From Candidatus Omnitrophota bacterium (GTDB lineage Bacteria > Omnitrophota > Omnitrophia > Omnitrophales > JACQLI01), in NCBI GenBank assembly GCA_016179745.1, contig JACPCP010000018.1, forward strand, positions 9,258-73,257: a stretch of DNA of 64,000 nucleotides, written 5' to 3'. Made by a program: the position numbers and the translations under genes. Of the stretch, positions 36,301 to 39,300 are shown piece by piece (position 1 is the first letter of the stretch; each line of letters opens with the position of its first letter). The notes beneath the pieces are model-generated. The model was not told where the DNA came from. It searched no databases and worked only from the letters and a program-made list of their open reading frames with translations.

Positions 36301-39300
36301 TGTTTCAACTTCTGCATCTCAGAGCTCGCCTTTGTCGTCACCTCCGAGGTCTGAAAGAGTTCCTGTAGAATGTCCCCGCTCACCCCAACTCCATTATCCT
36401 GAAGGCTAATCTGGAGCTTCGCTTCTGGAAGGAGTCTGGCGGAAAGCTTGATCTCCCCTTTGTACCCTTCGCTAGGATGCAAGACGGCACGAGTGATCAC
36501 GGCATCAAAAGAATTCTGGATCACGTGAAGCCGCAGGATCTGCGTTGTCTTAGCAGCAATTTCTGTCAACTCTTTCGATTCCCCTGCAGCATGTTTCTCC
36601 AACTCACTCTTCAATGCCTCAATCGCCTGTTCCGACCAGCCCTGAAAACTTTCGTATTGCCTCTTGAACTCATCAAGCTGCTCCGGGCTTACACGCCTCA
36701 CCTCGGCGCGGGGAGATTCGCCGAGGGCGGATACAGCCTGGGAGAGAGTTTCCAGCGATACACGGCTCCGGTTTGCGAGCGGGTCTCCGGATCGTTTTAA
36801 GGTTTCGAAAAGCTGTTTTGCATACGCAGCGCTTTGGCGATTTTCCATGTTTCCAGGAGACAGCTTTGAAAATCGCCTGCTTTGTTGAGAAAAAGGCAGA
36901 TCTTCACCCCGGGAAAATTTTTCGAGCGCTTCCTGTCTGGCGCTCTGAGCCAGACGGGTCGCAGCCTTTTGAAATCGCTTAAATTCGGCTTCGTCCCTCA
37001 ACAGTTTCAGAAGGGAATCCCTCGTCCGGTAAAACACAGTTTGTCTCCCCTTTTCCGGGCCTTCACCCCACGCAGAGTTGTACTCCTTTCTCTTTTCAAG
37101 ATAGAGTGCGGCATCCTCCCGGCTCAAATCCGGAGCCGCTGCTTCACCCTTCAGGATCTTAAGGGCCTTTTCTTTGGCGGTATCGAATTCTGCAGGTTTG
37201 GCTTTCAGAAGCTCAACGATAGCGGCTACCAGACGATACTCCTCGTCAAACTCCTCAAAAGGCGCTTCCGATACGTTATCAGGTGTTCGAAACGCATTCG
37301 GGTTGATGAGGAAAGCGGCCCTGCCGGAAATATCTTTCACCCTTTGATCGCTCAAATGGCGGTCGCCGGAGGTGTGGATGTCAACCAAAGCCACAGCCAC
37401 GAAGATCGTCTCTAACTCTTGAAGGAATTGGTTGACACCGCCTTCAAGTAAATAACCGTTGTCGACGAGCTCATTGACCCAATTGCGGACTTCATCGGAG
37501 TTCTGTAAAAAGTAGATCGATTCTGGGGGGGCTTTGTTGACGAGGCTCGAGAGGTCGGAGTGGCCGAGGACGGCCTTCACGGTTGCTTGCCTTACGATTT
37601 CATCCACCTTCGGATCCCATAAAAGGCTCAGCGCCAGACTTGCTCCGGCTTCTTGATGAGGGCCTCCCCGCAGTTCCTGAGAATATCCAATATCGTGGAG
37701 CGCGACGCTTCGGATCAGAATCGCTAGGCCCCGGTCGCTTAAGGCCCCTATTCTGTCCGAGAGCTGTTGAATGGATTTCGGTTCATGGATATTGGTCCGC
37801 GGGTCCAATCCCATAAAACCGTCGACATCCCCGGCCACGAGATGGTCGATGGCCTGGACCGCCGTCTGAACATGTTCGGATCTTGTGCGTTCTTGTGCGA
37901 GTTCCATCCCTTTCCGGTCCGTTAACTTCCAGCGGTTCTTTCCTTCATTGAACCGGTTGAAAAGATCATCAATAGTGTGGACTGCCTGACCTTCTTCGGT
38001 CCATTCTCGGACGATCTGTTTCAGGTATTCGGCCGCTGTCCGCACCTCGGCGCGGGCAGTTTCGACAAAGGTTTTCGTGATGCCCGGCGGTTCTTTCGGA
38101 ACGTTCTCCTCCGTCCTCATTTCAGCACGCTCCGGAATCTGTGTCGGGATTAAGGCTGCGAGTTCACCGGCAACACGTTTGTAATCACGATCCACTTCGG
38201 TCTGGGGCACAGTCACGGAAACTTGGGATAACCTGGCGTTCGCAATCTTGGTTGCGTCCTGATGGGGGGTTTTTGAGAGGGGGGCTTCCCCTGTTAGAGT
38301 CCTGACAAATTGCCGGCTTAGGATACCCTGGGTCACACTGGACGTTTGGACTTCACCCGCTGACGAGACAAAGAAGATAAGGGCCCCGGCACGGAAGAAT
38401 CGATATTGGACCTTGTCTGCGCTAATAAAAGGCTGCTGCCGGCCGTCCCGAGTTCTGTGAGTAAACACGGTATCCGGTTTCCAATAATCTGCCGGCCCGA
38501 CATAGAGCTGCCCTTTGTCATCAAAAAAAGCGATTACAGAATCCTCTCCAATGAACTTAAACCTGTTCTCAGGCAGCTCCATGAGTTCCTTGGTCGTTGA
38601 TGATTTCCCTGTTCCGGCCTCTCCGGCCAGGATAACCGCCTGTCCCGTTAAACGATCTTCCACCAGGTTGGCGTGAATATAAAACATGTGCAACTCGCGA
38701 ATGAGCTGAAGCACTGCCTCCATCCTCTCGCCCTGCACGGAATTTGGAGGGACGAACAGGAATGGCAGCATATTTGGATTGAGGCTTTGTAGGCCCGGCC
38801 CCAAGGACTGAAAGATAAGATCGGGTCGGAGGGCCTTTGACATATCGCTCCGCACCTCGGAGCGGACGTCAAACCCGGCACTTTCGGAAATGGTACGCCG
38901 ACTTTCCGCCGGATCCTCAGAACTTCTCACATCGGTTCTGCGAAGCTCTTCGAGCGAAGCAGACCGCGCCTCGGAGCGGCGGGAAGCATCGTGAACCTTC
39001 TGGTAAGTGAGAATCTGGGACGCGATGGGACCCAGTTCGAAAGACTCGTCAGGCAAATCCTTGACGGGGTCCGTGGCTTGAGCAACGCCTTTCCGAACCA
39101 ATTCCTTTGCGTAAAGCTTGGCAAATCGATTGAGGTAAACGATCCCCAGCCGATAGAAAGTTCGGGCCGCTTCAAATTTCCCTTTATCCGCAAAAAACTT
39201 CGGAAGCCCGGCAAAGAGCGTCGCATACAAATACCAAAAACGGAGATTCCAGGAAGGGCCGAAAATTCCTTGGGAACCAAAAGTGTCCGAATGCTCCCGA

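Follow-up and report, generated by a model that had tools for sequence, protein, structure and literature searches.

Giant proteins of the Omnitrophota have been suspected to undergo cleavage, with the cut points stated to be unknown (West-Roberts et al., 2023, 10.1101/2023.11.21.568195). Whether these giants act as a single chain or as cut pieces is an openly stated unknown, and their structure prediction and functional parsing have been held up because no cut points are known. Neither that study nor the 2026 preprint on "very long proteins" reports cleavage points, linker motifs or inteins, and a literature search returned nothing on motif strings or cleavage sites in Omnitrophota giants. 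Here we describe a stretch of 64,000 nucleotides from a Candidatus Omnitrophota bacterium (assembly GCA_016179745.1, contig JACPCP010000018.1, positions 9,258 to 73,257; hereafter "the window"), in which a giant open reading frame (ORF), named G1, contains repeated linker cassettes bounded by a five-residue motif, together with an intein that follows one of them. The giants of the two earlier papers likewise are multi-enzyme, membrane-associated giant ORFs of this phylum for which cleavage is suspected, but the family described here, which is set by its N-terminal domain, is mostly 2-8 thousand amino acids (aa) in length and not above 30 thousand as in those papers.

An initial annotation of the window had noticed the repeats and the intein, both correctly, and had overlooked the family-wide motif and a set of toxin-antitoxin genes antisense to the intein. 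This wider context, that is the motif, its variants, the linker niche and the antisense cargo, is more interesting than the finding as first noted. Our explanation as a whole, to which we assign a probability of about 0.6, is that the motif punctuates a giant precursor and would direct its processing, that the spacers between paired motifs are copied as cassettes among linkers, and that these spacers would serve as a niche for the intein.

A Punctuation Motif in a Family of Giant Omnitrophota Proteins

G1 and its paralog G2 (Table 1) share an N-terminal domain of about 600 aa behind a signal peptide. This domain (the N-domain) was found only in metagenome-assembled genomes of Omnitrophota, with several paralogues per genome, and a profile search recovered 8,380 cluster representatives at E ≤ 1e-10, in which it is always N-terminal. 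The largest protein among the 150 best representatives has 7,864 aa. Of the modules of G1, only the first and the last two have homologues elsewhere, the middle ones being unique. The family is best described as Omnitrophota-specific giant proteins, predicted to be secreted or membrane-bound, that start with the N-domain, continue with fast-evolving and mostly unique cargo modules and close with a conserved C-terminal module whose last residues are -[AS]-A.

G1 contains 21 copies of the motif R-[SA]-E-x-R and G2 contains 12, compared with a single copy in all other frames of the window. Across 141 family representatives (490,158 aa) there are 739 sites vs. 11.4 expected, and the motif is present in most of 79 Omnitrophota loci with the N-domain, where it is confined to the ORF that carries this domain and absent from unrelated long ORFs. 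At 312 sites analyzed for codon usage, the proportion of GAA to GAG for Glu equals that of the background and the last Arg is encoded by all six codons at near-background frequencies, while the fourth position draws on at least 12 codons (e.g., GTG, ATG, GCG, TTG, CTC, CTG), and the Arg and Ser of the motif draw on both of their codon families. Of 29 motifs located inside high-scoring segment pairs of diverged members, 24 are kept as motifs, while the flanks of ±15 residues are 30% identical and contain many indels. Codon usage and conservation together show the motif to be selected as a peptide.

The hydrophobic fraction drops to 0.15-0.22 at and beside the motif vs. a background of 0.32, and the spacing between motifs is bimodal: 27 of 241 intervals measure 10-60 aa (with a peak at 30-40), followed by a trough at 60-100 aa and a main mode at 200-700 aa. 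These distributions show a motif that is placed in hydrophobic-poor linkers, its copies being either a domain length apart or paired at a distance of 25-50 aa. Two other readings of the motif were rejected: phosphorylation or a Ser nucleophile, with position 2 being Ala in 23% of sites, and internal translation starts at position 4 (GTG, ATG or TTG), with GCG, CTC and ACG codons also found there and no spacing to a Shine-Dalgarno sequence.

The motif varies by lineage. Within one protein, the commonest fourth residue accounts for 0.65 of the sites vs. 0.435 ± 0.011 after shuffling; V is preferred in G1, A in G2, and L or M across whole genomes. Ca. Omnitrophus fodinae and USST_metabat.84, which are without R-S-E-x-R, carry [AG]-x-S-L-G at equal spacing. 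Among 114 members of at least 2000 aa, 90 belong to the R-S-E-x-R type and 18 to the x-S-L-G type, with none having both and six having neither, and RAEVR and x-S-L-G occupy one and the same alignment position after the N-domain. In the loci compared here (L-numbers denote genomic loci and P-numbers protein representatives), different short motifs recur at this same spacing: x-S-L-G is found in L009, L019, L021 and L006, HPE[LM]R in L053, RPEAR in L055, GAR[ML]A in L087 and L091, and PGAAPAGG in L095-L098. Sister lineages are thus shown to replace R-S-E-x-R, whose fourth residue is lineage-specific, by x-S-L-G at the same position, and this pattern is as expected of a recognition site co-evolving with its reader.

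Spacer Cassettes Copied Between Linkers of G1

Every copy of the cassettes lies inside the minus-strand ORF G1, and the repeats are direct and in frame. A segment of 60 nt is identical at 38850-38909 and 41313-41372 (60/60 nt; family D6 in a repeat search), and a segment of 74 nt at 38909-38982 matches 50723-50796 in 69 of 74 positions (93%, 5 mismatches; family D5), as the initial annotation had reported. The encoded peptides are also those it had given, namely AESRRTISESAGFDVRSEVR for the first cassette (aa 4482-4501 and aa 5303-5322 of G1) and RRSEARSASLEEL(R/Q)RT(D/E)VRSSEDP for the second (aa 5279-5302 and aa 1341-1364), and the same is true of the arrangement: the two cassettes abut at 38.9 kb (junction SSEDP/AESRR), and at 50.7 kb the second cassette is followed by EGL, the 709-aa intein and TAISGSPAG.

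In local alignments, the homology between 50.7 and 38.9 kb begins two codons before RSEAR and ends at ...SSEDP, and that between 38.9 and 41.3 kb begins at AESRR and ends directly after RSEVR. The modules that flank the cassettes are unrelated between sites, and chance cannot explain cassette identity of such length because nothing else in the two gene regions aligns. The cassettes are accordingly best read as the two halves of a spacer of about 38 aa that has a copy of R-[SA]-E-[VLAMIT]-R at either end (for sites A, B and C see Table 1). A degenerate copy inside the spacer of site B, RTDVR, has its site A counterpart in RTEVR (50739-50753), 8 aa ahead of the intein. Tracts of 100% and 93% identity that end sharply at the motif and at the cassette junction, amid unrelated modules, point to recent gene conversion or unequal recombination between linkers, and a recent conversion had already been proposed from the exact repeat. 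With these boundaries, spacer cassettes are shown to have been copied among the linkers of one gene by one or the other of these routes.

Elsewhere, blastn-short searches with the cassettes returned only matches of 15-16 nt to the motif core, and the cassette of the window has no homologue in other family loci, the spacer sequences being lineage-specific. Comparable duplications do occur: in L039 the unit RAEVR-~33 aa-RAEVR is present three times, with a nucleotide identity of 84-88%, and similar repeated spacers are found in L065 and L066.

Possible Processing of the Giant Precursor

We propose that the motif would be recognized by a factor specific to each lineage, in the likeliest case a protease that would cut the giant precursor into separate modules, some of which would then expose signal peptides of their own. 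Segments resembling signal peptides or transmembrane (TM) helices begin within 20 aa after a motif 20 times vs. 9.2 expected, and many of them resemble Sec or lipoprotein signals, for example MSTIQKVLLTATAAVLCGAGC directly behind RSEAR in G2, or the segment ...ALPSFATAQ behind RSELR in P0109. We consider it reasonably probable that the motif marks cleavage sites of such a polyprotein-like precursor. Found at hundreds of boundary sites in a family of more than 8,000 clusters, and with its lineage variants, the five-residue motif provides the first concrete and exact candidate cut points for Omnitrophota giants, and it offers a practical means of dividing them into modules.

The signal peptide in G2 (aa 2119-2143, window 9521-9595) begins with Met and lies directly after a motif deep within the ORF. 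Signal peptides behind internal motifs look as if once-separate secreted proteins had been fused in frame.

The same motif could instead be a linker element that is not cleaved, i.e., a docking or recognition strand for a chaperone, for a secretion or insertion factor, or for packing between modules, in which case the giant would remain a single chain and the cassettes would be duplicated linkers. The R-x-E-x-R pattern would place charged residues on one face of a strand, and conservation as a peptide, lineage specificity and position at boundaries fit any recognition site. No protease was found, and the intact splicing residues and open frames of the inteins would be essential if the chain must stay continuous. 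We nevertheless consider this alternative unlikely: segments resembling signal peptides or lipoprotein signals right after the motif, one of them starting with Met, would work best at a free N-terminus; double-motif spacers of 25-50 aa that are lineage-specific and otherwise unconstrained resemble excised spacer peptides; and a full swap to the unrelated x-S-L-G at the same position is typical of a change in the specificity of a protease and its site.

An Intein Clade in Double-Motif Spacers

All sequence criteria that we tested identify the element at site A as a canonical intein, and it is atypical in its host site, its lack of an endonuclease and its cargo. It matches the Pfam model Intein_splicing with 78.5 bits (cutoff 35.8, E 6.2e-22), and its splicing blocks are listed in Table 1. 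The frame is open across all 709 intein codons, and the 6,100 aa downstream include the conserved C-terminal module of the family; splicing itself is predicted. A Pfam scan of the 709 aa returned only Hint/intein models, with no LAGLIDADG, HNH or other endonuclease domain.

A tblastn search of the first 83 family loci found no relative of the intein. Homologous inteins are present in P0139 (DNA in L084) and P0062 (L085/L086/L090), both of which belong to the 150 best representatives, and an intein-directed metagenome scan added 80 further loci. In every giant ORF with a punctuation motif of its lineage (P0139, P0062/L090, L088, L087 with two, L091, L097), the intein is inserted 6-19 residues after a motif copy, as in the contexts (the slash marks the insertion point) RAEAR-EAQGGL/C, RSEVR-LTDIEKGL/C, RAEVR-SGLGQKDPIGL/C, GARMAE-GKPAATDVSKGL/C and PGAAPAGG-AANAAAEEEGR/C, compared with RTEVR-SSEDPEGL/C in the window. 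Both flanks are visible in seven cases, and in six of these the intein is followed by a second motif, such that its removal leaves a double-motif spacer of 27-53 aa. Short spacers of this class account for less than 1% of the sequence. The modules that flank the inteins of G1, P0139 and P0062 are not homologous (z ≤ 2.3), and the inteins therefore reside in different linkers. The same clade is found in fibre proteins of the type known from the Candidate Phyla Radiation (CPR)/Patescibacteria, where it is inserted in a GNVGIGTT...KLHVEGQ/.../TYISGNVGIGTT repeat at the same repeat point each time. These fibre proteins are a clear case of an intein that has colonized a repeated cassette. Several of their loci (L105, L141, L148, L156 and L164, within L102-L166) hold two or three inteins of the clade per gene. 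The distribution shows an intein clade that lives in short double-motif spacers and other repeated linkers of giant proteins, and in G1 such a spacer is occupied at site A and empty at sites B and C.

The initial annotation had equated the Thr of TISESAG in the first cassette with the +1 Thr of the intein. The start of the C-extein, TAISGSPAG, does resemble TISESAG beyond chance: the longest common subsequence of 6/7 is reached by none of the 8089 other 9-mers of G1, by 5e-5 of all family 9-mers and by 5.6e-4 of those anchored on Thr, and at the nucleotide level the two agree in 17/21 positions (p = 0.013). Comparisons of the intein flanks with AESRR-TISESAG by gap-penalized nucleotide alignment and by BLOSUM62 gave no significance, the two one-codon indels being penalized too heavily; the anchored subsequence test points to a real similarity that contains indels. 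The part of the proposal that did not hold concerns the junction residues, for Thr at +1 is found clade-wide and the residues before it differ, with EGL at site A vs. AESRR at the first cassette. G-L at -2/-1 and Thr-Tyr at +1/+2 are traits of the clade and not of the cassette. On the N-extein side, the homology between empty and occupied site covers 74 nt at 93% and ends three codons before the intein. The suggestion that the intein-free copies are empty sites thus stands insofar as the clade sits in double-motif spacers of this kind and the 38.9-kb spacer resembles the occupied site on both sides; it fares less well in that no endonuclease is encoded. When metagenomes were scanned with the spliced extein that surrounds site A, no relatives came up, and with them no case of presence/absence polymorphism.

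Strict homing, in which an endonuclease encoded by the intein would recognize the cassettes and would have left B and C as uncut or not-yet-invaded targets, would account for a cassette that abuts the intein, for similarity on both sides of the insertion point, and for the recurrence of the clade in repeated cassettes, including several inteins per gene in the CPR fibre proteins. It is improbable, however, as the intein contains no endonuclease domain, its center being antisense to toxin-antitoxin genes, as the cargo-free members of the clade are mini-inteins (258-370 aa, with two exceptions at 409 and 466 aa), and as B and C lack the G-L that occupied sites typically have at -2/-1. Because a homing endonuclease is not present, the intein more likely spreads by recombination, for which the repeated linkers would provide the homology. 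A spacer between two processing sites would moreover be a safe harbor, in which the neighboring modules are released even if splicing fails, and the presence of antisense toxin-antitoxin genes in the intein would become understandable as well. The occurrence of the clade shows that inteins have a niche in the repeated linkers of giant proteins.

Toxin-Antitoxin Genes Antisense to the Intein

Four ORFs on the opposite strand occupy the center of the window intein (Table 1). The first two are separated by a gap of 15 nt and the last two overlap by 4 nt. The L084 counterpart of the ParE/RelE-like gene matches Pfam ParE_toxin (E 2.6e-10), while the window copy stays below the Pfam threshold. By family match and two-gene arrangement, the intein cargo is predicted to consist of type II toxin-antitoxin modules. 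The intein of P0139 (L084, 7174-8252) carries homologues of the antitoxin-like and ParE-like genes in the same phase relative to the intein frame. A tblastn search of the cargo proteins over the intein loci (many of L087-L166) gave 93 matches, and all 93 were antisense to the intein. Our literature search found no description of toxin-antitoxin genes in inteins.

Cargo genes are present in 16 of 36 non-redundant complete inteins, and the inteins that carry them are 358-599 aa long, those without measuring 258-370 aa, again with the exceptions at 409 and 466 aa. The intein frame is open across the entire cargo in 23 of 24 cargo-bearing inteins; for the four ORFs of the window intein, the chance of encountering no stop is 0.37 x 0.23 x 0.007 x 0.35. 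Antisense cargo with an open intein frame is a clear example from nature of dual coding over long antisense stretches, and it is possibly a new strategy for intein persistence.

The window intein contains two cargo units, each of which is preceded by a strand WIKVKELRVG(D/N)EIGVP (repeat family D8, Table 1). The duplicated strand ahead of each unit suggests unequal recombination between two inteins with different cargo, and the two-cargo intein could have arisen in this way.

Weighing the Evidence

A number of observations weigh against our explanation. Cleavage is predicted here from sequence; there is no protease among the neighboring genes in the window, and the N-domain has no significant match in structure or sequence. 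The linker character of the motif surroundings is only moderate, and a signal-like segment follows only about 3% of the motif sites. Site A has no closing motif, unlike other intein sites, and the similarity at its junction was noticed post hoc in the initial annotation, which makes its p-value optimistic. Finally, codon choice is biased at the first Arg (CGY 77% vs. 40% background) and at Ser (TCN 96% vs. 68%), and part of the uniformity of the motif could therefore reflect copying at the DNA level or a constraint on the nucleic acid.

That bias would also suit a DNA or RNA signal, in which the 15-nt core (CGCTCCGAGGTGCGG) and the cassettes would be a recombination site, a repeat resembling repetitive extragenic palindromes, an RNase site or a Shine-Dalgarno-like pause (GAGGUG), and the peptide a by-product. 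Many copies within a gene are nucleotide-identical (4+4 in G1, 5 in G2), and the core is partly palindromic and contains GAGGTG. We regard such a signal as very improbable, since with the codon diversity across the family neither sequence nor pairing is conserved, since the motif is restricted to family ORFs and to their coding frame, and since sister lineages use an unrelated peptide; the RNA fold of the cassettes has a z-score of -0.5 vs. shuffles, and no Rfam family is present in the window. An assembly artefact, i.e., repeats produced by collapsed or chimeric joins of metagenomic reads, which exact 60-nt repeats in de Bruijn graphs can favor in metagenome-type sequence, is hardly credible given a frame that is continuous over 24.5 kb with the N- and C-terminal modules of the family, a G2 protein identical to an independently stored one, and equivalent repeated spacers in unrelated assemblies.

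A bolder version of our proposal is offered as tentative only, and we would not put it at even odds. R-S-E-x-R and its substitutes would be a processing code of cellular polyproteins with co-evolving proteases, and the endonuclease-free, toxin-antitoxin-bearing intein would be a previously undescribed selfish element. The substitutes would be x-S-L-G and H/R-P-E-x-R, and may possibly include G-A-R-M-A-E and P-G-A-A-P-A-G-G. On such a processing code, and with the same reserve for the combination, the intein would spread via recombination of repeated linkers, selection would keep both strands coding, and the genes would yield dozens of secreted or membrane proteins.

Other Features of the Family and the Window

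Table 1. Positions of the described features in the window (position 1 is its first nucleotide).
Feature	Position	Strand	Remarks
G1, giant ORF	30288..54815	-	8175 aa; signal peptide and conserved N-terminal domain, ~20 variable modules, conserved C-terminal module ending ...ARSA
G1 N-terminal family-defining domain	52866..54815	-	aa 1-650; signal peptide, alpha/beta core, invariant H82, E110, E163 and H461, large helical insertion
G1 conserved C-terminal module	30291..31514	-	aa 7768-8175; homologues at C-termini of L008, L015, P0070, P0121, P0159
G2, paralogous giant ORF	4457..15949	-	3830 aa; RSEAR at most of the 12 motif sites; same sequence as database protein P0144; ends ...WRSA
Site A, N-extein linker RSEAR-SASLEELQ-RTEVR-SSEDPEGL	50715..50792	-	aa 1342-1367; shares 5' half of site B
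Site B, complete intein-free double-motif spacer RSEAR-SASLEELRRTDVRSSEDP-AESRRTISESAGFDV-RSEVR	38850..38978	-	aa 5280-5322; 33 aa between motifs
Degenerate motif copy RTDVR in site B spacer	38925..38939	-	
Site C, double-motif spacer RSEVR-EIGEEKPTTAPAIGAE-AESRRTISESAGFDV-RSEVR	41313..41435	-	aa 4461-4501; shares 3' 60 nt (41313-41372) with site B
Intein	48588..50714	-	709 aa; Cys1 CVTGDT at aa 1368 (50697-50714); +1 Thr
Intein block B, TTANHP (TxxH)	50373-50390	-	invariant across clade members
Intein block F, VYDIEVQGTHNF	48615-48650	-	
Intein block G, GIFAHN	48588-48605	-	C-terminal His-Asn, then Thr
C-extein start, TAISGSPAG	48561..48587	-	similar to TISESAG of the first cassette
First copy of intein strand, NWIKVKELRVGDEIGVP	50235..50285	-	repeat D8
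Second copy of intein strand, (A)WIKVKELRVGNEIGVP	49461..49511	-	repeat D8, 94%; with 50235-50285 brackets the ParE pair
DUF433 antitoxin-like gene, antisense in intein	48843..49082	+	79 aa; E 2.1e-24; homologues in other inteins
DUF5615/PIN_10 toxin-like gene, antisense in intein	49098..49454	+	118 aa; E 6.5e-21
Antitoxin-like ORF, partner of ParE-like gene, antisense in intein	49579..49980	+	133 aa; 40% identity to L084 7443-7826, E 6e-15
ParE/RelE-like toxin gene, antisense in intein	49977..50234	+	85 aa; 38% identity to L084 ORF, E 3e-20

The N-domain of G1 was modeled with AlphaFold at a pLDDT of 76.6. A Foldseek comparison of the model with the PDB gave nothing at E ≤ 1e-3, only weak matches to EreC, BcR135 and ChaN at E 0.5-3, and nothing significant emerged from Pfam (permissive), PDB-sequence profile or NCBIfam searches; Pfam Erythro_esteras appeared in one of ten N-domain members at a non-significant E of 0.25. 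The domain may have an EreA/ChaN/TIKI-like hydrolase fold, which we regard as a lead only.

Nearly all complete family members (~100; G1 at 30291-30302 and G2 at 4460-4471) end in -[AS]-A, namely in RAA, SAA, QAA, ASA or RSA, and this dipeptide is reminiscent of C-terminal degron or processing signals. Family giants often stand in tandem with other giant ORFs, as in the P0006 locus or with the 7467-aa ORF upstream in L001-L003; the latter, with matches to Peptidase_M48, ABC1 and a methyltransferase, has no punctuation motif in its last 3,299 aa. An HExxH motif (VHELFHAL, window 42762-42776, aa 4014-4018) in an otherwise unannotated module of G1 might belong to a metalloprotease module. This module is not universal, with a homologue in one of 141 family representatives.

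G1 is flanked (29007-30343 and 55022-55975) by an AbiEii toxin and a helix-turn-helix protein at its 3' end and by a Fic/DOC protein upstream, all of addiction or defense type. The remaining genes of the window are of housekeeping nature (sulfate assimilation, biotin, MnmA, Rnf). Direct repeats of 50 nt with 96% identity (3080-3129 and 4416-4465) flank a gene for an AAA_14/DUF4143 ATPase (3164-4378), and since the second copy holds the last codons and the stop of G2, an insertion of the ATPase gene into the 3' end or terminator of G2 with duplication is suggested. Short repeats based on GGGGACAGGCA(CCTTT) are found around the gene junctions at 26580-26920 and again at 56373-56408.

Comparison With Known Systems

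With canonical inteins the element at site A shares all splicing blocks (Cys1, TxxH, HN and the +1 Thr) and a match to the Intein_splicing model well above threshold. Canonical inteins, however, sit in conserved sites of essential enzymes and contain an in-frame endonuclease, whereas the window intein is inserted in a non-conserved linker of a hypervariable giant, the place of the endonuclease is filled by toxin-antitoxin genes of the opposite strand, and the clade recurs in repeated cassettes, sometimes with two or three inteins per gene. Bacterial intein-like (BIL) and other Hint domains are similar in being Hint-fold elements in non-conserved regions of large surface proteins, but the window element has the C-terminal HN and the +1 nucleophile of inteins, and its best match is the intein model. 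The cargo resembles the type II toxin-antitoxin modules of plasmids, prophages and integrons in that the usual two-gene pairs (DUF433/DUF5615 and ParE/antitoxin) reside on a selfish element; here, in contrast, they are nested antisense in a protein-coding intein whose own frame stays open across them (23/24).

The giant proteins themselves are reminiscent of the processed polyproteins of picornaviruses, nidoviruses and retroviruses, in which unrelated modules are likewise joined in one ORF, with short lineage-specific sites and with spacer peptides between paired sites. Here the ORFs are cellular, being encoded on an Omnitrophota chromosome, and not viral, and for Omnitrophota cleavage by a cognate protease is a prediction. 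The Omnitrophota modules moreover carry signal peptides or TM anchors of their own, and the family has fixed N- and C-terminal modules. This latter architecture recalls the multifunctional autoprocessing repeats-in-toxin (MARTX) toxins, which are also large bacterial proteins with conserved ends and a variable cargo array exchanged by recombination, and whose cargo is released by cleavage at short inter-domain sites. The site is R-S-E-x-R or x-S-L-G here vs. a Leu site in MARTX toxins, the cargo is far more diverse and numerous, the family is restricted to Omnitrophota, and a Pfam scan of G1 and G2 found neither RtxA repeats nor a cysteine protease domain. We therefore place the system in neither class and consider the chances of cleavage to be somewhat above even, in which case the Omnitrophota giants would work in the manner of a processed polyprotein or of a MARTX-type modular toxin.

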